Part shown: piece after piece, positions 45,766 through 61,810 of the stretch | Layout of the letters: each line of letters starts with the position of its first letter | Numbering within the stretch: the first letter of the stretch is position 1 | DNA from: Lachnospiraceae bacterium | Lineage (GTDB): Bacteria; Bacillota; Clostridia; Lachnospirales; Lachnospiraceae | Length of the DNA stretch: 64,000 nt | Assembly: GCA_024692905.1 (NCBI GenBank) | Contig: JAILLY010000066.1 | Coordinates: forward strand, 2,912-66,911 | Direction of reading: 5' to 3' | Translations under genes and position numbers: made by a program | Notes under the pieces: model-generated | What the model saw: the letters and a program-made list of their open reading frames with translations, nothing else | Database searches by the model: none | Told to the model about the DNA's origin: nothing

Positions 45766-45778
45766 ATCTTCCTCCTTA

Positions 45779-47136: not shown

Positions 47137-47799
47137 CTATTTCTTCCTGTGATCGATCCCGGAAGCCACCTTCATTCCGAGATTCTGTATGATCTGGAAT
47201 ATGATTATGAGCAATGCTACGGTCACGAGCATTATATCCGTCTTCCATCTGTAATAACCGTAACGTACGGCTATATCACCAAGACCGCCTCCGCCGACGG
47301 TACCCGACATTGCCGAATATCCCAGCAGCACGCCCGTAGTGATCGTGGCGCCGGTAACCAGTGAAGTCTTTGCCTCCACAAGCAGTACCTTCAATATTAT
47401 CTGCATATTGCTTGCACCCATGGCCCTTGCGGCTTCGATAACTCCGGCATCGACTTCGTTGAGCGCCGATTCGACCATTCTTGCGATGTAGGGCGCGGCA
47501 CATACGACAAGGGGTACTATGGTAGCGGTGGAACCGTAACTCTGACCCACTAACGCCCTTGTGAACGGGATAAGGAGTATAAGCAGGATAAGGAAAGGGA
47601 TACTTCTTATTATATTGCAGAATATATCAAGGATCCTGTATATTATCCTGTTTGGCTTAAGGCCGCCGCTCCTTGTGACATTCAGGACAACGCCAAGAGG
47701 CAGTCCGACCGCATATCCCATAAGCGCGGAAACAAGAGTCATATACAGCGTGTCCCTTATACCTTCAAGCAGCATTTCTATTATCTTCTGATCAAACAC
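47137..47799 (-). CDS. metI: Methionine ABC transporter permease
   Basis: 220 aa MetI-like (EAARAMGAS...). Overlaps the metN stop. Confidence 0.85.
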   Translation of the reverse strand: MFDQKIIEMLLEGIRDTLYMTLVSALMGYAVGLPLGVVLNVTRSGGLKPNRIIYRILDIFCNIIRSIPFLILLILLIPFTRALVGQSYGSTATIVPLVVCAAPYIARMVESALNEVDAGVIEAARAMGASNMQIILKVLLVEAKTSLVTGATITTGVLLGYSAMSGTVGGGGLGDIAVRYGYYRWKTDIMLVTVALLIIIFQIIQNLGMKVASGIDHRKK

Positions 47800-48920: not shown

Positions 48921-50609
48921 TTAACCTTCAAAGAATACCACTGCTCCGTCATAAGTGTCTTCGATGAACTTCTTGATGTCATCAGACCTTAATACCTTGA
49001 CGAGAGCCTGGATCTTTGCATCATTCTCATGTCCCTCGTATACCGCGATGATATTAACGTAGGTCTTGGCCGCGACCGAATCCGTTGCCTCATAAGCTAT
49101 GGAATCATGTCCTACGGAATATCCTGCCTCAAGAGCATAGTTTCCGTTGAGTACAACGTATGAAACCTCACTGACGACCCTTGCGACCTGAGCCGCTTCA
49201 AGCTCGACAAACTTGATCTCATAGGGATTTTCGGTGATGTCGTTAACCGTGGCGGTAAGTCCGGCACCGTCCTTTAACGTAAGCAGTCCGTTGTCCTGAA
49301 GAAGAAGGAGTGCCCTTGCCTCATTGGTGGTATCATTGGGGATCGCTATCGTATCACCCTTTGCGATCTCATCGAGAGTCTTCTTGGTACCGGGATAGAT
49401 ACCGAAGGGTTCGTAATGGATATCGCCGGCATCGACAAGATGGGTTCCCTGCTCCTCATTGAAGCTGTTAAGATAAGGTACATGCTCTACATAGTTTGCA
49501 TCAAATTCACCTGATTCAACTACAAGGTTAGGCTGAACATAATCTTCAAACTCAGTTATCTCAAGCTTGTATCCGTGCTGTTCAAGAATCTTTGCTGCTT
49601 CTTCAAGTATCTCCGCATGAGGTATGGGAGAAGCGGCGATCTTTATAACCTCACCGTTTCCGTCCGGAATGTCGAGATCGGAAGCGGCTCCCGTTGAAAC
49701 AGGTGCGGCAACGACAGCGGTGTCTCCGCCTCCCTCAACTACGAGCGTATCCTCATAATCCTTTCCGTAGGTGTCGATAAGAGTGGCCTCATAATCCGCA
49801 TGGAAGAAATTCTCGTTTCCGAGTGCCTTTATCTCATCATTAAGCCAGTCAAGAAGTGTGCTGTTTCCTTTGCTTACGGCGGGAGCTATCGTATCCTGGC
49901 TTCCGAGTGAAGGGATGCCGACAACATATCCCTCGTTCTCAAGCGAATAAGCTATGACCTCTGTATTGTCGTTTGCCCATGCAACGCCTGTTCCGTTCTC
50001 AAACGATGTTTTTGCGGTTGCATATGTATCAAACTTCTGAAGCTTTATCTCCGGGTTGTTCTTCTCAAGATACGTCTCGGCCGTGGTTCCGGATATAACG
50101 ATCACCTGTTCATCGGCACCTATCTGATCAAGGCTCTCGATCACATGATCCTCATGCGAAACGACTCCGAGTGCAACATTCATATAAGGAAGGGCAAAGT
50201 CAACCTTCTCGGCCCTTTCTTCCGTTACCGTGAAGTTTGCAAGTATTATATCGACCTTGCCTGTCTCAAGATATTCAACCCTGCTTGCAGCCTCGGTTGA
50301 AACATAATTGATCTTAACTCCCAGATCCTTTCCTATCCTTTCGGCAAAGTATACGTCATATCCCTGATACTGTCCGTTCTCATCCACATATCCGAACGGA
50401 TTCTTATCGGAAAATACTCCGATGTTGATCTCACCGCTTGCCTTGATCTCATCAAGCGTCCTGTAGATCCTGTTTGCATCGTTCGTTGTTTCAGGGGCCG
50501 TACTCTGGACGGGAGCCGCTGCGCCTGCTGCGCACCCTGCGAGAAGTCCTCCGGTGAGTACTGCAGCCAGTGCTGTCCTTAACACATTCCTAAGTAGTTT
50601 TTTCTTCAT
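48921..50609 (-). CDS. Fused two-domain substrate-binding lipoprotein: SBP_bac_3 (polar amino acid/cystine-type) N-half plus MetQ/NlpA (methionine) C-half
   Basis: Lipobox LLAGC. Residues about 50-290 resemble family-3 amino-acid SBPs (GEINIGVFSDKNPFGYVDENGQYQGYDV...). Residues about 320-562 resemble MetQ (KIAASPIPHAEILE..., IAIPNDTTNEARALLLL). Confidence 0.8.
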   Translation of the reverse strand: MKKKLLRNVLRTALAAVLTGGLLAGCAAGAAAPVQSTAPETTNDANRIYRTLDEIKASGEINIGVFSDKNPFGYVDENGQYQGYDVYFAERIGKDLGVKINYVSTEAASRVEYLETGKVDIILANFTVTEERAEKVDFALPYMNVALGVVSHEDHVIESLDQIGADEQVIVISGTTAETYLEKNNPEIKLQKFDTYATAKTSFENGTGVAWANDNTEVIAYSLENEGYVVGIPSLGSQDTIAPAVSKGNSTLLDWLNDEIKALGNENFFHADYEATLIDTYGKDYEDTLVVEGGGDTAVVAAPVSTGAASDLDIPDGNGEVIKIAASPIPHAEILEEAAKILEQHGYKLEITEFEDYVQPNLVVESGEFDANYVEHVPYLNSFNEEQGTHLVDAGDIHYEPFGIYPGTKKTLDEIAKGDTIAIPNDTTNEARALLLLQDNGLLTLKDGAGLTATVNDITENPYEIKFVELEAAQVARVVSEVSYVVLNGNYALEAGYSVGHDSIAYEATDSVAAKTYVNIIAVYEGHENDAKIQALVKVLRSDDIKKFIEDTYDGAVVFFEG

Positions 50610-50698
50610 AATATTTCCCTCTTTTCTTTTATGATATATTGTTTCTTTCCGTATCGTTACTGTTACATTTATCTCCGAGTCCTTTATGTCCCGGCATC

Positions 50699-50724
50699 AA
50701 AAAAGCCCGGGATCTCTCCCGGGC
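50699..50724 (-). terminator. Attenuator terminator in the transporter-operon leader
   Basis: Minus strand GCCCGGGA-gaga-TCCCGGGC (8-bp stem) followed by TTTTTT. The 5' arm plus loop (GCCCGGGAGA) is a perfect 10-nt complement of TCTCCCGGGC (50795-50786) inside the leader ORF. Confidence 0.8.
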
Positions 50725-50736
50725 TCAGACTCGATC

Positions 50737-50850
50737 TTAACAGTGTGCATGACACGGAAGCCATACACGCCTAAGCCTTACATCAGCCCGGGAGAATAGC
50801 ATTCGACACATACACATCATACAACAGCCATTCATATATAAGCTTCTCAT
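50737..50850 (-). CDS. Cys/Met-rich leader peptide, 37 aa (MRSLYMNGCCMMCMCRMLFSRADVRLRRVWLPCHAHC)
   Basis: AAGGAGG lies 7 nt upstream of the ATG. Eight of nine consecutive codons (9-17) are Cys or Met. It shares the C-R-M-x-x-S-R core and CGAATGC...CTCCCGGG nucleotides with the metY leader ORF. Confidence 0.65.
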   Translation of the reverse strand: MRSLYMNGCCMMCMCRMLFSRADVRLRRVWLPCHAHC

Positions 50851-50880
50851 TGTCCTGCCTCCTTTCGATTCAATGGTAAT

Positions 50881-50920
50881 AAAATACACCCTAATTCCTA
50901 CTGTGTCAATAGGTTTTTAA
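50881..50920 (-). promoter_or_regulatory. Transporter-operon promoter with conserved operator-like box (copy 2 of 3)
   Basis: Minus strand TTAAAAACCTATTGACACAGTAGG (50920-50897). TTGACA (50909-50904), 17 nt spacer, TATTTT (50886-50881). Confidence 0.65.
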
Positions 50921-50927
50921 AAAAATT

Positions 50928-51179
50928 TTAATCCCCTACCTTTTTAATGTATAACTCAAACGTTCCGTCCTCATTATCAACGAGCTTAAGTACCTCGTGG
51001 CCCTCCTCCTTAACGCTCCTTGGCACGTTATTGACCGGTTCACCGTCATTTAAGTGGACCTGAAGTACCTGACCCTCATCAAGCTCATCAAGAGCGACCT
51101 TGGTCTTTACAAAGGTCACGGGACAGTTCACATCCGTAATATCAACAGTATCATCAACTTTAATATCTATCTCAGCCAT
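50928..51179 (-). CDS. TusA/SirA-like sulfurtransferase
   Basis: 83 aa from ATG 51179 (AAGGAGG 5 nt upstream). Conserved Cys in VNCPVTF and a two-layer alpha/beta pattern typical of TusA. Confidence 0.7.
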   Translation of the reverse strand: MAEIDIKVDDTVDITDVNCPVTFVKTKVALDELDEGQVLQVHLNDGEPVNNVPRSVKEEGHEVLKLVDNEDGTFELYIKKVGD

Positions 51180-51223
51180 TTTTTCCTCCTTTTGCGGGTC
51201 CCCGCAAAATACTTGTTTTATCA

Positions 51224-51652
51224 TCAGATCACGATCAGCTCTTCTTTTCGTACAGTCTTCTCTCCTTCTGCTTTCTCAATATGAAATGCATTAAGAACGG
51301 GGTTTTCTTCCTCCATGAGCGAAAGGATCAGATAACTCGCGCTGCTGTCATTGGCCAGCCGCTTATCTTCCTCTGACGGACGCGAGGGTGACGCCGGATG
51401 GGAGTGCCAGTTTCCGAGCGGTTTAAGGGCTCTTGCTCTCATATCCTTTACCGCATTGAGCTGTTCATGCGGATCGATCGTAAAATGCTCGCTGGTATGA
51501 TCGGTATTTGTCAGTATGTATACCTTACATATTTCCCGCACGCCATCCCTGCGATCGACTCCCGCTATCAGTCCGCAGGCTTCGTTCGGGCTTTCCTTAA
51601 GAGAGTGTTCATATATCATTTCAAAATCGCTGCGCTTTATCGTTATCTTCAT
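51224..51652 (-). CDS. JAMM/MPN+ metalloprotease (Mov34 family), copy 2
   Basis: NEACG glutamate motif and HSHPASPSRPSEED (HxHx7Sx2D). Start at ATG 51652 with GGAG upstream. Confidence 0.85.
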   Translation of the reverse strand: MKITIKRSDFEMIYEHSLKESPNEACGLIAGVDRRDGVREICKVYILTNTDHTSEHFTIDPHEQLNAVKDMRARALKPLGNWHSHPASPSRPSEEDKRLANDSSASYLILSLMEEENPVLNAFHIEKAEGEKTVRKEELIVI

Positions 51653-51706
51653 ATATTCTCCGTTCAACTATCATATGTGGTTCCAGCAGCAGCATCCAAA
51701 GAAAGA

Positions 51707-52522
51707 TCATTTGGACTGCTTCAGTTCACACTCCGCCTGCTCATAATCGATAAGCTCCGTTATCGTCGGTTCATCCGAACATACGGCACATCCCTTTCCG
51801 CGGGGAGGAAGCTTTATCTTATGAAATTCCATCTTAAGCGCATCATAAGTCAGCAGGTATCCCGAAAGCAGTTCGCCCGTACCCGTTATATACTTTACCG
51901 CCTCCATTGCCTGAAGCGAACCGATCACGCCGCCCATGGCTCCGATGACTCCGGCCTGTTTGCAGGTTGGGACCGCATCCTTTGGGGGCGGATTCTTAAA
52001 TATACATCTGTAGCAGGGGCTCTCGCCGGGGATTATCGTGGTGAGCTGCCCCTTGAACCGTATGATGCCGGCATGTGATAAGGGCTTTTTTTCCATCACA
52101 CATGCATCGTTGATAAGAAATTTTGCGGGGAAATTATCTGTCCCGTCCAGGATAAAATCATAATCCCTTATAAGCTCGCGTATGTTTGTACTGTTAACGA
52201 ACTGATAATAGGTATTCACAATCACATCCGGATTGATCGCACGCATGGTCTCTGCGGCTGATTCTACCTTCTTCTTCCCTATATCGGGTGTCGTATGTAT
52301 GACCTGCCTCTGAAGATTGGACAGATCGACAACATCTGCATCCGCTATGCCTATGGTTCCCACGCCGGCAGCGGCAAGATAAAGTGCGGCCGGTGCTCCG
52401 AGTCCTCCGGCACCTATTATGAGGACTTTTGCATTGAGCAGTTTTTTCTGCCCTTTTACGCCGATCTCCTTTAATATGATATGTCTTGAGTAACGCTCCA
52501 GCTGTTCATTTGTAAAAGCCAT
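51707..52522 (-). CDS. ThiF/MoeB/HesA-family E1-like adenylyltransferase
   Basis: RYSRHIIL..., GAGGLGAPAALYLAAAGVG nucleotide loop, CYRC and CAVC zinc pairs. TAATG overlap with the ThiS-like gene. Confidence 0.88.
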   Translation of the reverse strand: MAFTNEQLERYSRHIILKEIGVKGQKKLLNAKVLIIGAGGLGAPAALYLAAAGVGTIGIADADVVDLSNLQRQVIHTTPDIGKKKVESAAETMRAINPDVIVNTYYQFVNSTNIRELIRDYDFILDGTDNFPAKFLINDACVMEKKPLSHAGIIRFKGQLTTIIPGESPCYRCIFKNPPPKDAVPTCKQAGVIGAMGGVIGSLQAMEAVKYITGTGELLSGYLLTYDALKMEFHKIKLPPRGKGCAVCSDEPTITELIDYEQAECELKQSK

Positions 52523-52731
52523 TAAAGCCTTCCTCCTCCCATGAAGTATAAGAATTCGACCTCATCACCTTCGTTAAGAGCATGACTGTCAAAACTGCCT
52601 TTATCGATGAACTCCTCATTTACCGATACAGTCACATATTCCGGAGTTTCCACGTTTTCCTGCTCAATAAGCGCAGCGACCGTGATCCCGTCCGCAACTT
52701 CTTTTTTCTCTCCAGCTATAGTGATCTTCAT
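52522..52731 (-). CDS. ThiS/MoaD-like ubiquitin-fold sulfur-carrier protein with C-terminal extension (…FMGGGRL)
   Basis: 69 aa with a beta-grasp pattern (MKITIAGEKKEV...GDEVEFLYFMGG). The diglycine is followed by 2-3 extra residues. Strong RBS AGGAGGG. Confidence 0.8.
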   Translation of the reverse strand: MKITIAGEKKEVADGITVAALIEQENVETPEYVTVSVNEEFIDKGSFDSHALNEGDEVEFLYFMGGGRL

Positions 52732-52759
52732 GATCTTCCCTCCTGTAGTGTTTATTCTC

Positions 52760-53770
52760 TTAAATTATGTAGTACCACTCATCGCTCTGGCTTAATTCTT
52801 CACTTCTTATCTCGTTTTTGTCTGTCCGGTATTCCATCTCAAGATTCTTCATGCTGACCCTTGTGTTCGCATCGATGGAACAGGTGATGAATGCATTTCC
52901 TCCAATGACGGCATTCTCACCGATGACAGTCTCTCCTCCGAGGATTGATGCACCGGCATAGATCGTAACGTTATCGCATATGGTCGGATGTCTTTTCCTG
53001 CCGGAAAGTCTCTGCCCGCCTCTTGTGGAAAGAGCTCCTATCGTGACACCCTGATAAATCTTGACATTTCTGCCTATGACCGCCGTCTCGCCTATAACTA
53101 TCCCCGTACCGTGATCTATGAAGAAATATTTATCGATGGCCGCCCCCGGATGTATGTCTATGCCCGTCTTACTGTGCGCATATTCCGTCATGAGTCTCGG
53201 AAGAACGGGCACCTGTTCAAGATACAGCTCATGGGCCAGCCTGTACACCGTGATCGCCATCAGGCCGGGATATGCAAGAATGATCTCTTCATAACATCCC
53301 GCTGCCGGGTCCCCGTCATAAGCAGCCGAAAGATCCGTCTCTATATACTCACGTATCTTTGGTATCCTGGCAAAGAATGCCTTGCAGATACGGTAACTTT
53401 CCCGCTTCCTTTCATCATCGGTAAGGGTTCCCCTTTTTCTGCAGTAATCAAGGGCCAGATACACCTGTTTGCTCAGATGATAAAATATATCCTCGATGAT
53501 GACGGCAAAACTGTTCCTTGGATTATATATCTTGTAAGAGCGGTCCCTGAAATAACCCGGAAATATTATCCTGAAAAGATTTCTTATAAGTTCATGAACC
53601 TCTGCTTTGTCAGGTTTGTTATATATATTGACCTCATCGATATGTTTTTTTCCTTCAAAATCCTCAAATATGTTTTTGACGATAAGATCTATCTCTTCTT
53701 CCCTTATTATCTCATTCACCGGTATTCTCCTTATATCCTCATGTACTGCCGGATCCATCCGGCAGCACAT
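52760..53770 (-). CDS. Serine O-acetyltransferase, long form (about 150-aa N-terminal domain), encapsulin-operon associated
   Basis: C-terminal hexapeptide SAT core (GIDIHPGAAIDKYFFIDHGTGIVIGETAVIG). 336 aa. The N-terminus reads MCCRM. Confidence 0.85.
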   Translation of the reverse strand: MCCRMDPAVHEDIRRIPVNEIIREEEIDLIVKNIFEDFEGKKHIDEVNIYNKPDKAEVHELIRNLFRIIFPGYFRDRSYKIYNPRNSFAVIIEDIFYHLSKQVYLALDYCRKRGTLTDDERKRESYRICKAFFARIPKIREYIETDLSAAYDGDPAAGCYEEIILAYPGLMAITVYRLAHELYLEQVPVLPRLMTEYAHSKTGIDIHPGAAIDKYFFIDHGTGIVIGETAVIGRNVKIYQGVTIGALSTRGGQRLSGRKRHPTICDNVTIYAGASILGGETVIGENAVIGGNAFITCSIDANTRVSMKNLEMEYRTDKNEIRSEELSQSDEWYYII

Positions 53771-53782
53771 GAAGGCATTACT

Positions 53783-55504
53783 TTAAGCAAATGTCTTTAA
53801 TACTTTAACCAGTGCATCAATGTCATCCGGAGAATTATAAAGCGCGATAGTCGGCCTTACCGAACTTTCATATCCGAAACGGCGCAGAACCGGCTGCGCA
53901 CAGTGATGTCCCGTGCGAACAGCTATCCCGTAGCTGTCAAGCCTCTTTCCGACCTCTTCATCCGAATATCCGTCAAGCTTGAATGACAATGCCGATGACT
54001 TGTTGAGTGCGGTCCCTATAAGATGAAGTCCCTTTACCATTTTCATCTCTTTCATGGCATATGTTAAAAGTTCATGCTCCCAGCGGTAAACGCAGGGCAT
54101 GCCGATATCGGTAAGATAGGAAAGCGCCGCGCCAAGACCGACAGCATCGGCTATGCTTCCCGTTCCGGCTTCGAATTTGTTCGGGGCGGGATTATATATC
54201 GTCCTTTCAAAAGTCACATCCGCGATCATATTTCCGCCGCCGTGATAAGGCCTGGCTGCCTCGAGCAGTTCCTTCTTTCCGTAAACCGCTCCTATGCCCG
54301 TCGGAGCAAAGATCTTATGTCCGGAGAATACAAAGAAATCCGCATCAAGCGCCGATACATTCACCGGTATATGTGCCACCGACTGGGCTCCGTCAATGAG
54401 TATGCGTACTCCGTGCCTGTGTGCGATTGCAATGAGCTCCTCAACCGGAGTGACTGTTCCAAGCACATTGGACACATGGGTCACCGCAACAAATCTGGTC
54501 CGCTTTGTGAAAAGCTTCTCATACTCATGAAGTATGAGCTGACCGGTCTCATCGCAGGGTATAACCTTTATCACCGCACCCGTTTCCTGGGCTATCAGCT
54601 GCCAGGGAACTATGTTCGCATGGTGTTCAAGGATCGAGACGATGATCTCGTCTCCGGGTTCGAGCATCGGCTTTACATAAGCATTTGCCACGAGGTTTAT
54701 ACCTTCGGTCGTGCCTCGCACGAAGATGATCTCATCAGATGAAGGCGCACCGATAAAATCGCGCACGATATCCCTTGCTTTTTCGTATGCATCCGTCGAT
54801 CTTGCCGCCAGAGTATGGGCACCCCTGTGCACATTGCTGTTCTCATGCCCATAATAATACGAGAGTCTGTCTATAACGGCCTTTGGACGCTGCGTGGTCG
54901 CTCCGTTATCGAGCCATATCAGCGGATTGCCGTTTATCTGCTCTTTGAGGATTGGAAAATCATCCCTGATCTGGGCAAGCGACTTGCTGCCTATCCTTAT
55001 CTGGTCGTTCCTCGACGAAGCGGGGGCTGCCTTTGAGGCATCGCCGCTGACACTGTCACCTCCAAGCGATGTGGGGACATCTATCCTGCGGCCTTTTTCA
55101 TACGCCTGCGCCTGAGACATGACTGTCGGGGAATAACTCACGCTCTTTTCACCGGTAAGCACGGGTATATCCCCCATACCGGGGATCATTTCCGCCTCCG
55201 GAGCACTTACCGCCTCAACCGTCTGAAGATACTGATCGGTGTATCCCCCGCCGTAAGCGAAAGGGTGCTCCCAATCAAACGGTTCTGTCACCGGTGTGCT
55301 CAAGCCCGGGATTTCTCCGGCCGTTCCGGCATACGTGCCGGTCGAAGGTATATTCACTTCGGGAACGGATGCTGCCGGTATATCTGTCTCGGGAATACCG
55401 TATACACCTTCCGTAAGATCCGGAAACATCTCATTTGCAAGAATACTGAGTTCTCCCGCGCTTAAGATGCCGTCAGGATTATCAATCGTAATCATAATAT
55501 TCAC
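53783..55504 (-). CDS. SufS/CsdA-type cysteine desulfurase with about 170-aa disordered N-terminal extension (predicted encapsulin cargo)
   Basis: The catalytic part has HHANIVPWQ, SGHK (PLP lysine) and RTGHHCAQP (active-site Cys). The ORF-track start is GTG 55504 and an ATG at 55495 is also possible. It overlaps the encapsulin 3' end. Confidence 0.88.
   Translation of the reverse strand: MNIMITIDNPDGILSAGELSILANEMFPDLTEGVYGIPETDIPAASVPEVNIPSTGTYAGTAGEIPGLSTPVTEPFDWEHPFAYGGGYTDQYLQTVEAVSAPEAEMIPGMGDIPVLTGEKSVSYSPTVMSQAQAYEKGRRIDVPTSLGGDSVSGDASKAAPASSRNDQIRIGSKSLAQIRDDFPILKEQINGNPLIWLDNGATTQRPKAVIDRLSYYYGHENSNVHRGAHTLAARSTDAYEKARDIVRDFIGAPSSDEIIFVRGTTEGINLVANAYVKPMLEPGDEIIVSILEHHANIVPWQLIAQETGAVIKVIPCDETGQLILHEYEKLFTKRTRFVAVTHVSNVLGTVTPVEELIAIAHRHGVRILIDGAQSVAHIPVNVSALDADFFVFSGHKIFAPTGIGAVYGKKELLEAARPYHGGGNMIADVTFERTIYNPAPNKFEAGTGSIADAVGLGAALSYLTDIGMPCVYRWEHELLTYAMKEMKMVKGLHLIGTALNKSSALSFKLDGYSDEEVGKRLDSYGIAVRTGHHCAQPVLRRFGYESSVRPTIALYNSPDDIDALVKVLKTFA
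54995..55504 (-). other. Predicted intrinsically disordered cargo-loading domain of the desulfurase
   Basis: Low-complexity Pro/Gly/Ser/Thr-rich region. It contains GELSILANEMFPDL, which resembles the LARLANEFF-type loading motif reported for family 2A encapsulin cargo. Confidence 0.55.
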
Positions 55505-56438
55505 CTACTTCTACATCCTCAAGCACCGCTATCGCATCATCCGCAAGTATCGCAGCCGAGCAGTACAGAGATAATAAGTAAGATGCCACTCCCTTATCAT
55601 CGATGCCTCTGAAACGCACCGACAGTCCTCTTGAATGTTCGTTCTTGAGTCCTGCCTGGAATAATCCGACAACACCCCTCTTTGCTTCACCCGTACGGAT
55701 GAGAAGGATGTTGGTCTTTCCGCTTTCGGACTTGGGATTCTTAAGTCCGTCAACCAGGAGCTTGTCCGTAGGGATCACAGGGATCCCCCTCCATGTAAGG
55801 AAGTTTCCTCCTGCAATGTTTACAACTACAGGCGGTACACCCCTCTTCGTGCACTCTCTCTCAAATGCTGCGATAGCCCTGGGGTGAGCAAGGAAAAATG
55901 AGGGCTCCTTCCATACCTTGGTTATGAGTTCATCAAGATCATCGGGCGTAGGTGCACCGTTGCGTGTCTGGATCCTCTGGGAATCAGGCACGTTCTTCAA
56001 AAGGCCGTAATCATCATTATTGATCAGCTGGCTCTCCTGACGCTCCCTTAAAGACTCGATCGCAAGTCCGAGCTGCTCCTGGACCTGATCGTAGGGTACA
56101 CTGTAAACATCCTCCACGGATGTGTTCACATTGATGATCGTTGAGATCGAATTAAGGACATATTCGCGGGGTTTCGTCTCATACTCAACATATCCCTGCG
56201 GAATTATGTCTGACTTTTTCGTCTGGGAGCAGAGCACGTCGAGCGGGGTTTCGCCTTCAACCACCCTGTTCACCCTGTAGATACCGGTCTCCAGCCCCTT
56301 GAACTCAAGGAATTTGGTGAGCCATCTGGGGGTGAGTGCTCCAAACTGGGGCTTGGTCTTGGTAATGTTCGCAAGATTATAGGCCGCCTGAGAATCAAGC
56401 GCGTTGATCCCCTCTTTCTTAACTGTTTCGTTTGCCAT
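55482..56438 (-). CDS. Family 2A encapsulin shell protein (SrpI-like, HK97 fold)
   Basis: 318 aa from ATG 56438 (GGAGG 7 nt upstream). Motifs I recall from SrpI-type shells: LTPRWLTKFL, GIYRVNRV, KPREYVLNSISTIINV, ERQESQLIN, TRNGAPTPDDLDELITKVWKEPSFFLAHPRAIAAFERECTKRGVPP, LLSLYCSAAILADDAIAVL. No cNMP-binding insertion. Confidence 0.8.
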   Translation of the reverse strand: MANETVKKEGINALDSQAAYNLANITKTKPQFGALTPRWLTKFLEFKGLETGIYRVNRVVEGETPLDVLCSQTKKSDIIPQGYVEYETKPREYVLNSISTIINVNTSVEDVYSVPYDQVQEQLGLAIESLRERQESQLINNDDYGLLKNVPDSQRIQTRNGAPTPDDLDELITKVWKEPSFFLAHPRAIAAFERECTKRGVPPVVVNIAGGNFLTWRGIPVIPTDKLLVDGLKNPKSESGKTNILLIRTGEAKRGVVGLFQAGLKNEHSRGLSVRFRGIDDKGVASYLLSLYCSAAILADDAIAVLEDVEVGEYYDYD

Positions 56439-56518
56439 TTCAGTTCCTCCTGTCTTATGATTGATCATTTTCTATTAGATAGTCTGCTCCTGACAGACGT
56501 ATCCATCGTAAATATATA

Positions 56519-57976
56519 TCAGAGCCATGCGCCCTCGTGCGAAAACATGATATCCTTCATCGCCTCTATACCGCCCTTTAAGTTGTACATCGGGCCGTTA
56601 TACCCCGCTTCCCTTAACGTATTGATCGCGAGGATGCTTCGTTTGCCCTCCCTGCAGACAAAGACCGTATCCTTATCCGGATCAAGTTCATCCTTTCTCC
56701 TTGCAAGCTGGCCTATCGGGATCACTATCGCATCCGGGAAACGCATTATCGAGCGCTCGTGCGGTTCACGTACATCGATTATGGTCATGGGATCCTTGTC
56801 CTCTATTCGCCTGGCGAGTTCCTCCGGAGTGAATCCTTCGACAGGGATCTCATCTTCCGCAGTTTTAAGATGGCAGAATTCCTCGTAATCAAAATCCTCA
56901 ACCCTGAATATCGAGGGATCTGCCCCGCATATCGGACACTTACGGTCCTTCTTCACCTTAACGATCCTGGATCCGAGATACAGGCTGTCGATCGTAAGCA
57001 GCCTGCCGTCAAGATGTTCTCCTATCCCGATGATCAGTTTAAGTGCTTCATTTGCTGCGATGCTCCCGATGATTCCGGGCAACGGACTTATCGTGCCGCC
57101 CTCCGCACATGTCGGGACAAGCCCCGGCTCAGGCGGTTCGGGAAACAGGCATCTTAAACAGGGACCTCCGTTAAGATTGAAGATGCCGACCCTGCCTTCA
57201 TACTGGTATATCGCCCCGAATACCAGGGGTATGCCCAGAAGTGCACAGGCATCGTTTATAAGATATCTGGACCTGTGATCGCCGGTGCAGTCTATCACAA
57301 GATCGTAGCCGTCGATCATGGATACTATGTTGTCGGCATTGATCCTTTCATTCTCCGATTCAAAATTTATGTTCCTGTTGGTGTTCCTGACTGTATCCCG
57401 TGCCGATGCCACCCTGGGACGCTTAACATCACGGGCACTGTGTATTACCTGACTCTGAAGGTCTTCAAGAGAAACATCATTATCATCGACCACTTTTATC
57501 GTTCCGACACCTGCTGCCGCAAGATACTGGATAACGGGCGAACCCAGCGCCCCCGCCCCCATGACAACGACTCTTGACGCTTTGATCCTCTTCTGGCCCT
57601 TGACTCCTATCTCTCTTAGCAGAAGATGTTTGCCGAAACGTTCAACCTCCTGATCGTCAAGACCGACTTCCTTCCTCCGTTCATCCGGTATGAGATTATC
57701 CGAAGGCGCACCTCCTGCGATCGACGGTAGCAGGAGTACCTCATCATCGGGTTTTAGTTTTCTGTACCACTGATCGGGTTCACTCCTGTCCTCATCCCCG
57801 ACATATAACCTTATAAAGCTGTTAAGTCCTCCGTCTGCATTGAATATCACCTTTTTTGAATCCGGATATTCATCGGTCAGGAAATTGAGGATACTTTTAA
57901 TATCATCCCCCGAAACTTCCACGAAACTGTTCCTTCCGAAAAATCCCCTTAAAGTAGCCGATATATAAACCTTCAT
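56519..57976 (-). CDS. Triple fusion: MoaD/ThiS-like Ubl domain (ends ...LLLPSIAGG) plus ThiF/MoeB E1 adenylyltransferase plus C-terminal rhodanese
   Basis: Residues 1-92 show a beta-grasp pattern with a diglycine at the junction. E1 core GAGALGSPVIQYLAAAGVG with CLRC/CPIC. Rhodanese active loop VCREGKRS. Confidence 0.85.
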   Translation of the reverse strand: MKVYISATLRGFFGRNSFVEVSGDDIKSILNFLTDEYPDSKKVIFNADGGLNSFIRLYVGDEDRSEPDQWYRKLKPDDEVLLLPSIAGGAPSDNLIPDERRKEVGLDDQEVERFGKHLLLREIGVKGQKRIKASRVVVMGAGALGSPVIQYLAAAGVGTIKVVDDNDVSLEDLQSQVIHSARDVKRPRVASARDTVRNTNRNINFESENERINADNIVSMIDGYDLVIDCTGDHRSRYLINDACALLGIPLVFGAIYQYEGRVGIFNLNGGPCLRCLFPEPPEPGLVPTCAEGGTISPLPGIIGSIAANEALKLIIGIGEHLDGRLLTIDSLYLGSRIVKVKKDRKCPICGADPSIFRVEDFDYEEFCHLKTAEDEIPVEGFTPEELARRIEDKDPMTIIDVREPHERSIMRFPDAIVIPIGQLARRKDELDPDKDTVFVCREGKRSILAINTLREAGYNGPMYNLKGGIEAMKDIMFSHEGAWL

Positions 57977-58432
57977 TTACTTCTGTCCTCCAATTATGAT
58001 CACCGGCCGCACCGCCTTTGTACAGGTATCCTGTCCGGACTTATCCGGGAGCATTCTTATATAACCGGCCGTCTCCGTACAGCCCTTCTCATCCACCGAT
58101 ACGATCACATATATCAAACCGGGTACAGCATGCTTAATATCTTCATCCGAGCATATTGCGGGCTTGTCCGGATGTGAATGATAAAAGCCAAGCAGATCCA
58201 TCCCGGCTGTTTCCGCCTCGTTCTCTATCTGCCGGAGCTGACCGGCATCTATGCGGTAGCCCTCAGCCGCACTTATTCCGGAAAGTGTATTCCGAGCGGG
58301 CCTTACCATATTAATCCGCCGTGTGTCCTTATACCCAAGCAGTGCTCCGCATCCCTCGCAGGGATATGCACGGCTTAAATGCTCTCTCATGAGTTCATAT
58401 TCATCATTGTCAAACCAAACAACATCTTCCAT
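57977..58432 (-). CDS. JAMM/MPN+ metalloprotease (Mov34 family), copy 1
   Basis: PCEGCG glutamate motif and HSHPDKPAICSDED (HxHx7Sx2D). Confidence 0.85.
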   Translation of the reverse strand: MEDVVWFDNDEYELMREHLSRAYPCEGCGALLGYKDTRRINMVRPARNTLSGISAAEGYRIDAGQLRQIENEAETAGMDLLGFYHSHPDKPAICSDEDIKHAVPGLIYVIVSVDEKGCTETAGYIRMLPDKSGQDTCTKAVRPVIIIGGQK

Positions 58433-58451
58433 ATGATACCGTCAATGGCCT

Positions 58452-59684
58452 CTACCGGGAGACCGACTTTACAGCCTGCACAAAATCTTCCACCAGATCC
58501 TCTGCATCCTCTATGCCCACACTGACCCTTACGGTATCTTCATATACACCTGCTGCATTCATCTCTTCCACGGCTGTCTTATTGTACAGTGTCGATGCGG
58601 GATGTATGACCAGCGTACGAAGATCGCCGATGTTACTTGCTATCATCGCATATTTCAGCGAATCGATGATCTTAAATGCCCTTTCCTTAGACCCGGCCCG
58701 GAAGCTTAATATACCGCCCCCAAGGCCTCTGAGTTCCTCTTTGGCGATCTTATTGTACGGATGATCCGGGAGAGTCAGATAATTGACCTTAATCCCTTCA
58801 ATCTCATAAAGTGCACGGGCAAGTTTATCGGCGTTATCACAGATCCTTTCCATCCTAAGTCCGAGCGTATCGGTTCCTATATAGTTAAGGAATGCGTTCA
58901 TCGGGGCCATGCAGCCGCCGATATTCTCCCATATATCGTTACGAAGCCTTACGGAAAAGGCCATCGGTCCGTATTTCTTATAATCCGAAAGTGCAGTATG
59001 CTTATCCGCATCCCACTTAAACTTACCGCCGTCGACTATGATGCCGCCGATCGAATTACCTCCCCCGTTTAAATATTTGGAAGTCGAATGAATGACTGCA
59101 TCCGCCCCCATCGACAGAGACCTGGCCAGATATGGGGTTGCCGTCGTTGCGTCCACAAAAAGCGGGATCCCGGCTTCATGGGCCGCCGCAGCCGTCCCGG
59201 CCACATCCATGACTTTCAGTGAGGGATTGGCGATCAGCTCACCGAATACCACCTTAGTCCTTTCGTTTATGAACGGCCTTATCGAGTCGCCGTTCATCTC
59301 AGCGGTATAAACGGTATGGATACCAAGCTTTTCAAGATCATGTAACAGTTCTATTGTCCCACCGTACAGACCGCTGCAGGTTATTATCTCATCACCGCTT
59401 CCACATACCGCAAGCAATGCAGACGCGATGGCAGACATCCCGCTGCTGCAGCAGACAGCACCCACGCCTCCTTCAAGTTCGCTTATCCTCTGCTCGAAGG
59501 CGGCTATCGTAGGATTTCCGATGCGCGTATATGCATACCCCATGCTCTTATGTGCAAAAACCTTCTCAAGTTCCTCCATACTCTCGTACCTGAAAGCACT
59601 GACCTGAGAGATGGGCGGGAGCATCTCACGCGATGCATATCCCCGGGATGTTTTTCCGTGTAAAAGCTTCGTATTAAACTGCAT
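58452..59684 (-). CDS. O-acetylhomoserine/O-acetylserine sulfhydrylase-like PLP enzyme (second MetY/CGS-family paralogue)
   Basis: 410 aa, Cys/Met-metabolism PLP family (HSTSKYLNGGGNS contains the PLP lysine). Confidence 0.85.
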   Translation of the reverse strand: MQFNTKLLHGKTSRGYASREMLPPISQVSAFRYESMEELEKVFAHKSMGYAYTRIGNPTIAAFEQRISELEGGVGAVCCSSGMSAIASALLAVCGSGDEIITCSGLYGGTIELLHDLEKLGIHTVYTAEMNGDSIRPFINERTKVVFGELIANPSLKVMDVAGTAAAAHEAGIPLFVDATTATPYLARSLSMGADAVIHSTSKYLNGGGNSIGGIIVDGGKFKWDADKHTALSDYKKYGPMAFSVRLRNDIWENIGGCMAPMNAFLNYIGTDTLGLRMERICDNADKLARALYEIEGIKVNYLTLPDHPYNKIAKEELRGLGGGILSFRAGSKERAFKIIDSLKYAMIASNIGDLRTLVIHPASTLYNKTAVEEMNAAGVYEDTVRVSVGIEDAEDLVEDFVQAVKSVSR

Positions 59685-59695
59685 TTTTGATCCCT

Positions 59696-60076
59696 TTACC
59701 CGTTTGATCTCTTCTTTTCATAATCATTAAGCGCCGACTGTATGGCTTCCTCCGCAAGGACCGAGCAGTGCATCTTATAATCCGGAAGTCCGTCCAGCGC
59801 CTCCGCCACTGCCTTGTTCGTAAGCTTCATCGCTTCACTCACGGGCTGCCCCTTTATAAGTTCGGTCGCCATAGAACTTGATGCTATGGCACTTCCGCAT
59901 CCGAAGGTCTCAAACTTCACATCCTTTATGATGTCGTCCTCGATCTTTAAATACATCTTCATAATGTCGCCGCATCTTGCATTCCCGACTTCTCCGATGC
60001 CGTCCGCATCTTCTATGACTCCGACATTTCTAGGATTGCGAAAATGATCCATTACTTTTTCACTGTATAAAGCCAT
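59696..60076 (-). CDS. iscU: Fe-S cluster assembly scaffold IscU/NifU-N
   Basis: 126 aa with the three conserved Cys in GNARCGD, FGCGSAIASS and MHCSVLA. Confidence 0.93.
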   Translation of the reverse strand: MALYSEKVMDHFRNPRNVGVIEDADGIGEVGNARCGDIMKMYLKIEDDIIKDVKFETFGCGSAIASSSMATELIKGQPVSEAMKLTNKAVAEALDGLPDYKMHCSVLAEEAIQSALNDYEKKRSNG

Positions 60077-60097
60077 GATCCTTCCTCCAAATTCTTC

Positions 60098-61282
60098 CTA
60101 TAAAATATGCTGTTTCTTTCCCGACTCAAGATCACGCCAGATAGGCGAGAAGCTCCTTAAATACTCAACCACTTCTCTTACCGACGAAATGATAAAGTCA
60201 ACATCCTTATCACTTATATCCTCTCCTATACTGAGTCTTAAAGACCCGTGCGCCACATCATGTACCCTGCCTATCGCAAGGAGCACATGGGAAGGATCAA
60301 GCGATCCGGATGTACATGCGCTTCCGGATGATGCCTGTATCCCTTTATCATCAAGCAGGAGCAGGAGTGACTCTCCCTCTATACCCTCAAAACAAAAATT
60401 CACGTTCGAAGGCAGTCTCTTCTTTTCGTCGCCGTTTAGCGCAGAGTGCGGTATCTCCCTTAATCCCTTTATCAGGCGGTCACGCTTTTTTATGAGTTCC
60501 CCCGATGTTTTATCCATTCCCGCAGCAGCTTCCTTAAGGGCCTTTGCCATGGCTGCGATCGCCGGAACGTTCTCCGTACCCGCACGAAGCCCCCTCTCCT
60601 GGGCGCCGCCTTCTATCAGATTTGTAAGTCTTATGCCCTTTTTCGCATAAAGGAAACCGACACCTTTGGGGCCGTGGAACTTATGGCCCGATGCCGAAAG
60701 AAGATCGATGTTGTCATCCACGACATTTACCGGGATATGTCCCACAGCCTGTACGGCATCAGTATGGAAGAGGACCTTCTTTTCCCTGCAGATCACTCCT
60801 ATCTCCCTTATGGGCTGGATCGTTCCGATCTCATTATTTGCATACATTATCGTAACAAGGCAGGTATCGTCCCTTATCGCCTCTCCGACCTCGGAAGGGA
60901 TAAGGAGTCCGTTCTCATGCACATCAACAAGTGTTATCTCAAAGCCTTCCTTCTTAAGCTTATTAAGGGTGTGAAGTACCGCATGGTGCTCAAATGCAGA
61001 AGATACTATATGAAGCTTTCCGTTCTTTTTTCCAAGAGCGGCTGCCGAAAGGATCGCCTGGTTATCTGCCTCGCTCCCGCCGGAGGTGAATAATATCTCC
61101 CGTCTGCCGGCTCCTATCACACCTGCTATATCCTCTCTTGCTTCCTCGAGGATCTCCCTGGCTCTCTGTCCGAAGCCGTATAAGCTCGACGGATTACCAT
61201 AGTTTTCCTTCATTACCGATATCATTGTCTTCATTGCCGTCTCACTCATTCTGGTGGTCGCGGCATTATCTGCATATATCAC
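60098..61282 (-). CDS. iscS: Cysteine desulfurase NifS/IscS (class I)
   Basis: 394 aa with SGHKFHGPKG (PLP lysine) and SSGSACTSG active-site loop. GTG start 5 nt after GGAGGTG. Confidence 0.93.
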   Translation of the reverse strand: MIYADNAATTRMSETAMKTMISVMKENYGNPSSLYGFGQRAREILEEAREDIAGVIGAGRREILFTSGGSEADNQAILSAAALGKKNGKLHIVSSAFEHHAVLHTLNKLKKEGFEITLVDVHENGLLIPSEVGEAIRDDTCLVTIMYANNEIGTIQPIREIGVICREKKVLFHTDAVQAVGHIPVNVVDDNIDLLSASGHKFHGPKGVGFLYAKKGIRLTNLIEGGAQERGLRAGTENVPAIAAMAKALKEAAAGMDKTSGELIKKRDRLIKGLREIPHSALNGDEKKRLPSNVNFCFEGIEGESLLLLLDDKGIQASSGSACTSGSLDPSHVLLAIGRVHDVAHGSLRLSIGEDISDKDVDFIISSVREVVEYLRSFSPIWRDLESGKKQHIL

Positions 61283-61309: not shown

Positions 61310-61351
61310 ATTATAACGACTACTTACCTACCATGTCAATAGGTTTTTTAA
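61310..61351 (-). promoter_or_regulatory. Promoter of the sulfur operon with conserved operator-like box (copy 3 of 3)
   Basis: Minus strand TTAAAAAACCTATTGACATGGTAGG (61351-61327). TTGACA (61339-61334), 18 nt spacer, TATAAT (61315-61310). Confidence 0.65.
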
Positions 61352-61414: not shown

Positions 61415-61810
61415 ATGATCTCTACACGCGGAAGATACGCGATACGCGTTATGATAGACCTTGCCCAGAATCAGGACGAGCACTATATACCCCTTAAGGA
61501 CATAGCGGCAAGGCAGGAAATATCCAAAAAATATCTCGAGATAATAGTTAAGGATATGGTGGCCGGAGGACTCTTAAAGGGTGCCAGCGGCAAGGGCGGC
61601 GGATACAAGCTGTGCCGTGCGCCGGAAGAATATAATATAGGTGAGATAATCGAACTGATGGAGGGCACTCTTTCATCGGTTGCATGTCTTGCCGACAAGA
61701 CCAACGTCTGCCCGAGGAGAAAGTCCTGCCAGACACTTCCCATGTGGGAGGAATATGATAAGATGGTGCACGATTTCTTCTACGGGAAAAAGTTAAGTGA
61801 CCTTATCTAA
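61415..61810 (+). CDS. Rrf2-family transcriptional regulator (IscR/CymR-like) with three-Cys putative Fe-S ligands
   Basis: MISTRGRYAIRVMIDLA... is a winged-helix Rrf2 N-terminus. Cys triad in CLADKTNVCPRRKSC. Divergent from iscS. Confidence 0.88.
   Translation: MISTRGRYAIRVMIDLAQNQDEHYIPLKDIAARQEISKKYLEIIVKDMVAGGLLKGASGKGGGYKLCRAPEEYNIGEIIELMEGTLSSVACLADKTNVCPRRKSCQTLPMWEEYDKMVHDFFYGKKLSDLI

Follow-up and report, generated by a model that had tools for sequence, protein, structure and literature searches.

We found, in a 64,000-nucleotide stretch of a Lachnospiraceae genome (assembly GCA_024692905.1, contig JAILLY010000066.1, positions 2,912 to 66,911 of the forward strand; hereafter the window), a cluster of twelve open reading frames (ORFs), all encoded head to tail by the minus strand (window positions 50928-61282), that combines the genes of a family 2A desulfurase encapsulin with those of two ubiquitin-like (Ubl) sulfur-carrier modules, each with an E1-type activating enzyme and a JAMM metallopeptidase. 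From the promoter onwards the genes are iscS, iscU, a metY-like gene, the gene for the first JAMM protein (JAMM1), a gene for a Ubl-E1-rhodanese fusion, the shell gene, the gene for the cysteine desulfurase cargo (CyD), a gene for a serine acetyltransferase (SAT)-like protein, thiS, thiF, the gene for the second JAMM protein (JAMM2) and tusA. On balance, we lean towards reading the cluster as a sulfur amino-acid starvation operon that joins the encapsulin to two protein-thiocarboxylate pathways feeding cysteine and homocysteine synthesis. The novelty lies in the conserved physical linkage between a desulfurase encapsulin and carrier systems, with an E1-rhodanese in the slot of a simple rhodanese; both Ubl modules themselves were already known (Iyer et al. 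2006). The synteny suggests, without proving it, how sulfur stored in the shell could return to amino-acid synthesis.

Conservation of the gene order

When one genome per species was scanned for the shell protein, at least 548 relatives were recovered, and the best 80 (84-93% identical) were taken with 10-kb flanks; among these nearest relatives the neighbourhoods were counted by tblastn with the window proteins, using as denominators the loci with enough flanking sequence. In 73 of 74 loci the fusion gene immediately precedes the shell gene; a JAMM gene lies upstream of the fusion gene in 66/72, and the desulfurase gene follows the shell gene directly in all 73. SAT was present in 48/54 loci, ThiS together with ThiF in 44/54, the complete ThiS/ThiF/JAMM set in 42/51, TusA in 41/51 and a sulfhydrylase somewhere in the locus in 45/51. 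Since the same order recurs in dozens of species genomes, the arrangement goes beyond chance, and the condition under which the original prediction would have been refuted, that the combination is conserved in no related genome, decisively fails.

Two blocks can be distinguished. One (block B: JAMM, fusion, shell, desulfurase and, optionally, SAT) was never broken, whereas the other (block A: optionally MetY, then TusA, optionally thioredoxin, ThiS, ThiF and JAMM) was found before, after or split around block B; it is split in the window and forms one five-gene block, metY-TusA-(Trx)-ThiS-ThiF-JAMM, in at least seven loci. The gene directly upstream of JAMM1 encodes a sulfhydrylase in 49 of 68 loci, either MetY-like (41) or of the PALP family (CysM/CysK-like, 8); it is the JAMM gene of the other module in 2/68, and neither a sulfhydrylase nor a JAMM was detected at this position in 17/68. 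In one Oscillospiraceae-type relative the gene table reads Rrf2 - AraC - PALP - JAB - ThiS.ThiF.Rhodanese - SrpI-like - Aminotran_5 - Hexapep, and the PALP protein scores best against the CysM model; a CysM-like PALP gene precedes JAMM-fusion-Enc-CyD-SAT in L084 and L085. A gene for an Rrf2-type regulator flanks or heads the cluster in 17/51 loci. The fusion-shell order survives even where the fusion has diverged, which supports the proposed union: in one locus (L088) a fusion protein only 42% identical to that of the window is directly followed by a shell gene that is 84% identical.

The hosts of the 80 relatives are mostly rumen and gut Lachnospiraceae, with among them the cultured strains AB2028, G41, V9D3004, KH1P17, XBB2008, Pseudobutyrivibrio xylanivorans DSM 14809 and MZ8. 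The other host labels (Oscillospiraceae, Ruminococcus, Roseburia, Fibrobacter, Ruminobacter, Succinimonas and Treponema) derive from metagenome-assembled genomes (MAGs), so that the labels span Firmicutes, Fibrobacterota, Gammaproteobacteria and Spirochaetota, all of the non-Firmicutes ones being subject to possible binning errors. The closest genomes in the species collection reach about 74-83% identity at the nucleotide level, and do so for parts of the cluster; a look-up of the exact shell protein of the window gave no record.

The fusion protein and its JAMM peptidase

The fusion protein (485 aa; 56519-57976, minus strand) consists of a CysO/MoaD-like ubiquitin-fold domain (aa 1-89; 57710-57976), an E1 adenylyltransferase domain of the MoeB/MoeBR type (aa ~105-372; 56861-57664; PF00899, 4.8e-69; MoeB 1JW9, 5e-49) and a rhodanese domain (aa ~380-485; 56519-56839; PF00581, 2.8e-15). 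The N-terminal 89 residues alone were weakly recognised by NCBIfam models (SAMP1, 3e-9; archaeal MoaD, 2e-6). A Ubl profile built from 22 orthologous N-terminal domains and searched against the PDB gave as best matches the CysO of 4N6E (4N6E_B, 2.8e-15) and M. tuberculosis CysO (3DWG chain C, 1.2e-14), and Pfam ThiS (PF02597) matched 22/22 of its members. The profile and CysO align end to end, with the C-terminal PAVAGG of CysO on residues 84-89 of the fusion (P-S-I-A-G-G), and the parallel with CysO/MoeZ/Mec and HcyS/HcyF/HcyD/MetY that had been drawn before thus gains from a match that ends exactly at AGG. In the motif P-x-[IV]-A-G-G that closes the domain, P84, A87, G88 and G89 are invariant among 82 orthologues, while the remainder of the domain averages 48% identity; no exception to the GG was seen either in ten more distant fusions (tri-domain or Ubl-E1; 33-63% identical to the window protein), in which the linker behind it varies in length. 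An AlphaFold2 model (mean pLDDT 84), which was used for domain boundaries only, shows for residues 1-84 a strand/helix pattern that fits a beta-grasp fold (pLDDT 81-91) and has low confidence for residues 85-100.

The catalytic features of the other two domains are retained. In the E1 domain the GxGxxG loop, both CxxC motifs and C290 are all invariant, and we call the domain MoeBR-like since both CxxC motifs are kept (the criterion of PMC3227635). The rhodanese domain has the loop C441-R-E-G-K-R, of which C441, G444 and R446 are invariant in 82/82. Directly upstream lies the gene for JAMM1 (57977-58432, minus strand; Prok-JAB, 2.8e-18), a JAMM/MPN+ metallopeptidase and putative analogue of Mec+, the stop codon of which abuts the start codon of the fusion gene; its E26, H85, H87, S95 and D98 (E...HxH...S..D) are invariant in 26/26. 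E1 enzymes adenylate a free C-terminal glycine, as is established for MoeB, ThiF and MoeZR, and the fused Ubl must therefore be cut out of the fusion protein; the adjacent JAMM1 would be the obvious candidate for the excision.

No stand-alone rhodanese gene is present in the cluster, the C-terminus of the fusion being its sole rhodanese. The original prediction had pointed to the rhodanese genes that sit next to family 2A encapsulins, but the present domain does not correspond to these: it is fused to an E1 and matches 2FSX, the Ab-RLD-like type, only weakly (E 1e-3), other rhodanese types matching better. By sequence, it is an analogous, not orthologous, replacement of the classical encapsulin rhodanese.

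We also searched the fusion protein against 50%-identity representatives of some 15 billion proteins. The three-domain architecture was present in only about 8 of the top 150 clusters, nearly all others being E1-rhodanese proteins without Ubl. Outside encapsulin clusters, the related fusions always adjoin one sulfur-accepting enzyme, either PALP or ThiG: the order is Rrf2 - CysM-like PALP - JAB - fusion in L086 and L087 (where the contig ends), polyketide synthase (PKS) gene - PALP - JAB - fusion on a JGI contig of P0127, rhodanese - x - fusion - CysK-like in L089, JAB - fusion - ThiG (thiazole synthase) in L090 (1389-4223) and JAB - fusion - PALP - SAT-like, without encapsulin, in L094 (7513-11370). 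The JAMM and fusion pair thus seems to be a portable thiocarboxylate generator with a target set by the neighbouring enzyme, which speaks for amino-acid synthesis as the role in the window. The version of the module with a cysteine synthase has SAT beside it even in the absence of a shell (L094), and from contexts like those of L086 and L094 it follows that the Ubl half does not need the encapsulin.

The encapsulin shell and its cargo

The start of the shell protein (318 aa; 55482-56438, minus strand) is placed at ATG 56438, 7 nt behind a GGAGG, in keeping with the homologue lengths of 315-319 aa (the ORF tool had extended it to 56468). The protein scores 491.5 bits against the family 2A model NF041162 (cut-off 380), has PF19307 (SrpI-like, 4.5e-95) as its sole Pfam match and matches the solved 2A shells of Acinetobacter baumannii (8T6R, 5.7e-114) and Synechococcus elongatus (SrpI, 6X8M, 2.2e-109) as well as 8WOL (1.7e-100) and mycobacterial Mmp1. 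The cNMP-binding insertion that separates 2B from 2A is missing, 2B structures align over the C-terminal ~235 residues only, and the 2B model gives 382.7 bits against a cut-off of 400. On these sequence features we assign the shell to family 2A.

Among the proteins of the cluster the shell is conserved best, with a median identity of 91% as compared to 67% for the fusion and 36% for JAMM1. It is 84-93% identical across hosts with a flanking GC content of 40-55%, and JAMM1 in the same clusters is 27-45% identical (e.g. L073, L048 and L074). The sequences thus point to an unusually strong constraint on the shell. Recent horizontal transfer as the cause is not supported: the GC content of the cluster follows that of the host flanks from 40 to 55%, and the conservation therefore reflects selection rather than very recent transfer.

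The gene for CyD (53783-55495, minus strand) has its start at ATG 55495 (55504 according to the ORF tool) and overlaps the shell gene by 14 nt, as it does in L081. NF041166 matches residues 165-571 with 774.6 bits and so narrowly misses its cut-off of 800; the first 164 residues lie outside the match. This N-terminal part of ~165 aa is poorly conserved and indel-rich with three conserved islands, and its low conservation, indels and composition suggest that it is disordered. The first island, LSILANEMFP, agrees with the published loading motif LARLANEFFS at 6/10 positions, and K397 and C535 are invariant. The protein passes as a family 2A cargo, given that its gene adjoins the shell gene, that it is of the SufS type and that it carries a motif like LARLANEFFS, with a model score just under the cut-off.

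The SAT-like hexapeptide transferase downstream (52760-53770, minus strand) has an N-terminal extension of ~125 aa and scores under the curated cut-offs (164 bits with cysE TIGR01172, cut-off 211; 149.9 bits with EpsC, cut-off 150). A second SAT homologue in the window (~3366-3797, minus strand), presumably the housekeeping cysE, is 47% identical to its catalytic part.

The second carrier set

The second set starts with a ThiS-type carrier (52522-52731, minus strand; TIGR01683, 68.5 bits, cut-off 37) that ends in FMGGG-RL. Nearly all orthologues have FMGGG and, behind it, a tail that varies between one and nine residues (R, C, Q, AR, SR, SYGVY and others), the pattern that would be expected if a peptidase removes the tail. 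The carrier is followed by a ThiF/MoeB-type E1 without rhodanese (51707-52522, minus strand; PF00899, 2.8e-87; median identity across loci 91%), in which GxGxxG, two CxxC motifs and C187 are all invariant in 54/54, and by JAMM2 (51224-51652, minus strand, ATG at 51652, where the ORF tool extended to 51667; Prok-JAB, 3.9e-24; 2KKS, 1.3e-36), a JAMM/MPN+ metallopeptidase in which E29, H88, H90, S98 and D101 are invariant in 56/56. The last gene of the cluster encodes a TusA/SirA-type sulfur-relay protein (50928-51224, minus strand, start possibly ATG 51179; PF01206, 4.6e-21), the Cys34 of which, in the C-P-x-T motif, is kept in 47/47.

The two carrier sets had been described as a duplication. 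A recent duplication is ruled out by the comparison between them, as the E1 domains are 39% identical, the JAMM proteins 28%, and the Ubls show no significant similarity; the sets instead represent two different, long-known types of Ubl neighbourhood (Iyer et al. 2006, PMC1779556, rows 4c and 4e).

The stand-alone ThiS/ThiF/JAMM/TusA/MetY block often comes with a thioredoxin gene (L085, 507-4829; also L050, L059, L068 and L079) and in L085 also with a thioredoxin-reductase-like gene. The thioredoxin genes hint at a dedicated reductant for the resolution of an acyl-persulfide.

The MetY-like sulfhydrylase

The enzyme encoded upstream of JAMM1 (58452-59684, minus strand) is a divergent MetY-like O-acetylhomoserine (OAH)/O-acetylserine sulfhydrylase (PF01053, 2.8e-100) that reaches 388 bits with TIGR01326, under the cut-off of 495; the lysine for its pyridoxal phosphate (PLP), Lys203, is kept in 55/55. 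The window contains a canonical MetY as well (43376-44659, minus strand; TIGR01326, 635 bits), to which the cluster protein is 33% identical, so that the organism has a standard, presumably sulfide-using, MetY and a divergent one in the cluster. The MetY of a stand-alone block A elsewhere shows 50% identity with the MetY-like protein of the cluster and 35% with the canonical MetY, which sets the cluster-linked enzymes apart as a separate, divergent group. The Wolinella MetY (3RI6) is the third-best PDB match of the cluster protein (287 bits) and ordinary OAH sulfhydrylases score about equally; sequence alone therefore gives no tie to the thiocarboxylate-using MetY.

Operon structure

The twelve ORFs were confirmed at their predicted positions, with gaps of -14 to 80 nt when counted with refined starts, in agreement with the tiny or overlapping junctions that had been proposed, and profile searches of every ORF (Pfam, NCBIfam and PDB sequences) backed all of the domain assignments. 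The layout also fits the proposed single operon. A perfect sigma-70 consensus promoter (12/12; 61339->61310, TTGACA-18-TATAAT) lies ahead of iscS, a terminator scan showed no strong terminator and only weak hairpins inside the cluster, and the counts of promoter-like and terminator-like sites inside it match those in shuffled sequence, with the reservation that a consensus scan can miss separate units. The first strong predicted terminator 3' of the operon is at 50726-50703, with no intrinsic terminator earlier. At gathering thresholds, Rfam gave no riboswitch or other known RNA within the cluster or next to it, and at E <= 1 it gave none for 50500-51000.

The first two genes encode a NifS/IscS-type cysteine desulfurase (60098-61282, minus strand; TIGR03402, 509 bits, just under the cut-off of 530.75) and a NifU/IscU iron-sulfur (Fe-S) scaffold of the clostridial type (59696-60076, minus strand; TIGR03419, 219 bits, cut-off 188). 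That the system is headed by an Fe-S assembly pair, as the original prediction had it, does not apply beyond the window and its like: of the 51 loci that were covered in full, only 2 include iscS and iscU in the cluster, and the conserved promoter normally lies directly before metY or the Rrf2 gene. NifS/NifU is a local, lineage-specific addition to the transcript.

Promoter motif, putative leader peptides and candidate regulator

The operon promoter (61310-61345, minus strand) carries over its -35 box a 19-nt motif, AACCTATTGACAnnGTAGG (61327-61345), as a candidate operator. The motif overlaps the -35 box of three promoters in the window, all on the minus strand (44984-45002, 50897-50915 and 61327-61345), where 0.02 would be expected. 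Of 85 loci, 30 have the motif, with the consensus ACCTATTGACAtaGTAGGTAAAT and a -10 box behind it, a short distance ahead of the first gene of the cluster; this first gene can be metY, the Rrf2 gene, iscS, a PALP gene or JAMM1. The motif is probably the operator of a sulfur regulon. A gene for an Rrf2-family regulator (IscR/CymR-like; 61415-61810, plus strand; Pfam Rrf2, 1.9e-31; NCBIfam rrf2_super, 114.9 bits) is located divergently from the operon; the protein scores 92 bits with IscR and 86 bits with CymR, both under the cut-offs. It is our guess that this protein is the repressor acting at the motif ACCTATTGACAnnGTAGGT, and where the Rrf2 gene is the first gene after the motif it looks like an autoregulated repressor.

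Behind each of the other two copies of the motif come a ribosome-binding site, a short ORF with many Cys and Met codons, and a strong terminator. The copy nearest to the cluster (whole element 50703-50915, minus strand) precedes a 37-aa leader ORF (50737-50850; MRSLYMNGCCMMCMCRMLFSRADV...) with its terminator at 50703-50726, a predicted attenuator of the downstream methionine/cysteine transporter genes: a gene for a fused cystine-type/MetQ-type binding protein and genes for ABC transporters. The other precedes a leader ORF at 44815-44937 (minus strand; ...IMCCCRMQNSRVSNTAGAY...; terminator ~44755-44786) upstream of the canonical metY. The two leader ORFs contain NGCCMMCMCRMLFSRA and IMCCCRMQNSRV, respectively. 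Pairing is possible between the 5' arm of the terminator and the CCCGGG of the conserved S-R-A codons, which would give an antiterminator, the alternative fold expected of a ribosome-mediated attenuator. Leaders with M-C-C-C-R-M occur in at least nine related loci and precede the encapsulin cluster itself in several loci (such as L023, L044, L047, L055 and L056). No Rfam family matches the leader and terminator elements. Judged from their sequences, the short ORFs look like leader-peptide attenuators that sense cysteine and possibly methionine. Analogues were described in mycobacteria and other Actinobacteria (bioRxiv 10.1101/834739; PMC1262725), and we found no description in the literature of cysteine leader attenuators for Lachnospiraceae.

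The motif and the leaders place the cluster in a regulon governed by the supply of cysteine or methionine, and the motif that it shares with genes under control of a Cys/Met leader points to induction by sulfur amino-acid starvation. Such a regulon agrees with reports that sulfur starvation induces 2A encapsulins (PMC8049743; PMC10836720).

The binding-protein gene behind the first leader (48921-50609, minus strand) encodes a 562-aa lipoprotein in which an SBP_bac_3 domain (cystine/amino-acid type) is fused to a MetQ/NlpA domain, and which by its domains would be a two-headed binding protein for sulfur amino acids. It is followed by genes for MetN (47792-48805) and a MetI-like protein (47137-47799) and by a second amino-acid ABC transporter gene set (45031-47127).

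Comparison with known systems

Family 2A desulfurase encapsulins were described in 1462 operons from 11 phyla, in four operon types made only of rhodanese (R), acetyltransferase (AT), encapsulin (Enc) and cysteine desulfurase (CD) genes (PMC10836720). The published list of encapsulin neighbours contains aminotransferase V, hexapeptide transferase, rhodanese, ABC transporter, LysR, HTH_3 and PALP, without ThiF, ThiS or JAB, and one rhodanese sequence cluster 'contains all encapsulin-associated' rhodaneses, its representative 2FSX being 44% identical to Ab-RLD. These encapsulins are induced by sulfur starvation (PMC8049743; PMC10836720) and store elemental sulfur (PMC10836720), and the authors leave open how and for what destination the stored sulfur is retrieved and what the role of the acetyltransferase is (PMC10836720; PMC10925157). 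The operons of S. elongatus (SrpI), A. baumannii and Mmp1 (PMC8049743, PMC10836720, PMC11659603) resemble the present one in the 2A shell (~1e-100 to 1e-114), in the SufS-type cargo with a poorly conserved N-domain and LxxLANExF, in the adjoining SAT-like gene and, likely, in their control by sulfur starvation. They differ in that they have a stand-alone rhodanese of the Ab-RLD/2FSX type where we found a JAMM gene and the Ubl-E1-rhodanese fusion, and in that they lack the usual extras of the present clusters, namely the upstream sulfhydrylase gene and ThiS/ThiF/JAMM/TusA. The hosts differ as well, those found here being strictly anaerobic gut and rumen bacteria.

The first carrier set resembles the CysO/MoeZR/Mec+/CysM system of M. 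tuberculosis (types 4c and 4d), the chemistry of which is established (PMC3227635 and references therein). Both have a CysO-like beta-grasp protein ending in AGG, an E1 with a C-terminal rhodanese and a JAMM peptidase, and the parallel extends to CysM in the Oscillospiraceae-type relatives, where a CysM-like PALP gene lies directly upstream (PALP at that position in 8/68). In contrast to the mycobacterial system, the Ubl forms the N-terminal part of the E1 polypeptide and needs excision, the E1 keeps both CxxC motifs, the sulfhydrylase in the window is MetY-like and not CysM, and SAT, which would supply O-acetylserine, is present where M. tuberculosis uses O-phosphoserine. Moreover, an encapsulated desulfurase is co-encoded here, whereas the sulfur source of MoeZR was reported as unknown (PMC3227635). 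A fused or extended carrier that is processed at GG, or an E1-rhodanese architecture, was seen before in QbsC/QbsD/QbsE (thioquinolobactin) and other carriers matured by a JAMM protein, in the N-terminal Ubl-ThiF fusions of Campylobacter and Pelobacter (PMC1779556) and in MoaX (MoaD-MoaE) of M. tuberculosis, which is a precedent for a fused carrier that needs cleavage for its activity (PMC4326299). These have another end product or context, and none is linked to a protein compartment.

Iyer, Burroughs and Aravind (PMC1779556) listed Ubl, E1-rhodanese, JAB and cysteine synthase as row 4c, and Ubl, JAB, rhodanese-less E1, SirA and O-acetylhomoserine sulfhydrylase, from low-GC Gram-positives and Wolinella, as row 4e. 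The second carrier set is similar to the type 4e system HcyS/HcyF/HcyD/MetY of Wolinella succinogenes, with which it shares the ThiS-type carrier with a removable tail, the rhodanese-less E1, the JAMM, TusA/SirA and a homologue of OAH sulfhydrylase. In contrast to the HcyS system, no sulfate-reduction genes are present here, the module is split around the encapsulin block in most loci, and the MetY of the cluster is divergent (33-35% identity with canonical MetY) and does not resemble that of Wolinella more than it does other OAH sulfhydrylases. The Wolinella genes are said to constitute a methionine pathway, reportedly described by Krishnamoorthy and Begley in 2011.

In the openly searchable literature, which leaves subscription-only papers outside, we found no paper that joins encapsulins with Ubl/E1/JAMM, thiocarboxylate or sulfur carriers, in line with the original prediction, which was aware of no described system that wires the two together.

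A possible route from the shell to cysteine and homocysteine

In the reading that we favour, CyD would be packaged in the shell by means of its N-terminal loading motif and, by analogy, would convert cysteine into alanine and sulfane sulfur; both packaging and conversion were shown experimentally for homologous 2A systems. JAMM1 would cut after Gly89 and thus free the C-terminus of the Ubl, the E1 domain would adenylate Gly89, and a persulfide on Cys441 of the rhodanese would turn the adenylate into a thiocarboxylate (Ubl-COSH). The adjacent PLP sulfhydrylase (the divergent MetY here, a CysM-like enzyme in the Oscillospiraceae-type loci) may then condense the thiocarboxylate with O-acetylhomoserine or with O-acetylserine supplied by SAT, after which an S-to-N acyl shift and cleavage by a JAMM peptidase would release homocysteine or cysteine. 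The second set (ThiS with its removable tail, ThiF, JAMM2 and TusA as a persulfide shuttle) would do likewise as a module of the HcyS/HcyF/HcyD/MetY type. The most speculative step, suggested by the synteny, is that the sulfane sulfur on the rhodanese and TusA comes from encapsulated CyD or from the sulfur it has stored; in that case the E1-rhodanese would do what was proposed for the stand-alone rhodanese of classical encapsulin operons. Control would be exerted at the promoter-overlapping motif, with the Rrf2 protein as candidate repressor and, in some relatives, a Cys-codon leader attenuator as a second level.

Several observations weigh against this route, and part of them favour the main rival explanation, which we judge to be rather unlikely, namely that the neighbours are co-regulated and not channelled: the encapsulin, CyD and SAT would store or buffer sulfur, the Ubl modules would use sulfide or sulfur from a cytosolic desulfurase (NifS/IscS/SufS), and a shared starvation regulon would have brought them together. 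The shell pores are small, with the sulfur inside and the E1-rhodanese and TusA in the cytosol, and there is no known route for sulfur through the shell (PMC10836720). The two halves occur apart, both as Ubl-E1-rhodanese modules with JAMM, PALP and SAT without an encapsulin (JAB-fusion-PALP-SAT in L094, Rrf2-PALP-JAB-fusion in L086) and as classical R/AT/Enc/CD operons without Ubls, and therefore each can work alone. A cytosolic NifS is encoded in the same transcript in the window and could be the real sulfur donor, and the same promoter motif is found before the canonical metY and the transporter genes. The favoured route is further weakened by the 17 of 68 loci without a sulfhydrylase gene directly upstream of JAMM1 (e.g. 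in Pseudobutyrivibrio), by the single MetY-like enzyme that the cluster offers for two carriers, with no CysK or CysM (PALP) anywhere in the 64-kb window, by the scores of SAT and the MetY-like enzyme under the curated cut-offs, which leave their substrates uncertain, and by the origin of all frequencies from one clade. Co-regulation, however, does not readily explain why the adjacency of fusion and shell is near-absolute (73/74), across phyla and large divergence of the fusion, since modules that share only a regulator should reshuffle more: block A moves with respect to block B, but the fusion never leaves the shell. Furthermore, the fusion sits in the rhodanese slot of the classical operons, and nifS and nifU are missing from 49 of the 51 clusters.

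It is improbable, in our view, that one or both carriers feed the thiolation of a cofactor, a tRNA or a natural product (thiamin thiazole, molybdenum cofactor (Moco), 2-thiouridine or a thioacid metabolite) instead of cysteine and homocysteine. ThiS passes the thiS equivalog cut-off and ThiF comes close to that for the thiazole ThiF (272.8 against 275.25), a related tri-domain fusion lies beside ThiG (L090) and another beside a PKS gene, and mycobacterial MoeZR serves both Moco and cysteine synthesis (PMC3227635). Yet no ThiG, ThiH, ThiE, MoaE or TtuA-type gene was seen in the window cluster or the annotated encapsulin loci, even though ThiS passes TIGR01683, and no cofactor-pathway enzyme was found among the annotated neighbours in the five loci of which the gene tables were read. 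The acceptor enzymes beside the carriers are MetY-like or CysM/CysK-like, the stand-alone block A carries its own MetY and TusA, as in type 4e, and control is by Cys/Met leader peptides.

That the Ubls are protein modifiers, with SAMPylation-like conjugation and JAMM deconjugation that regulate the shell, its cargo or metabolic enzymes, is most improbable: NCBIfam matches to haloarchaeal SAMP1, the SAMP-activating E1 UbaA and desampylase are present under the cut-offs, and archaeal SAMPs act as sulfur carriers as well as protein modifiers, but genes resembling E2 or E3 are missing, the rhodanese fused to the E1 has an invariant Cys, CysO is the closest match of the Ubl profile, the neighbours are sulfhydrylases, and the PADLOC E1-E2/JAB models match partially and weakly (<=65 bits). 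Anti-phage defence of the CBASS type with Cap2/Cap3 (E1-E2 and JAB) was rejected for the same partial matches, which cover the adenylation domain, and the missing E2.

Implications for sulfur storage and amino-acid synthesis

The favoured union of encapsulin and carrier pathways can be taken one step further, to a tentative store-and-release cycle that we consider possible but would not yet rely on. Under cysteine sufficiency CyD would bank sulfur in the shell, and under cysteine or methionine starvation a shell-associated, JAMM-primed E1-rhodanese would withdraw it as thiocarboxylate, from which the sulfhydrylase would rebuild cysteine or homocysteine using O-acetylserine (from the SAT of the operon) or O-acetylhomoserine. 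If true, the cycle would explain the route of remobilisation and the long-unexplained SAT of desulfurase encapsulin operons, and it would provide MoeZ-type E1-rhodaneses with the sulfur donor that is still missing for them.

A candidate downstream pathway can be read from the operon itself, with an activating enzyme that has a sulfur-accepting domain, a carrier, a peptidase for maturation and release and an amino-acid-forming enzyme, and the acknowledged open question of how sulfur is retrieved from encapsulins thereby becomes experimentally testable. If the reading is right, the synthesis of cysteine and methionine via protein thiocarboxylates, so far associated with Mycobacterium and Wolinella, would extend to abundant Firmicutes of rumen and gut, Fibrobacter and Succinivibrionaceae-type MAGs, inhabitants of environments where the supply of sulfur amino acids matters for fibre digestion.

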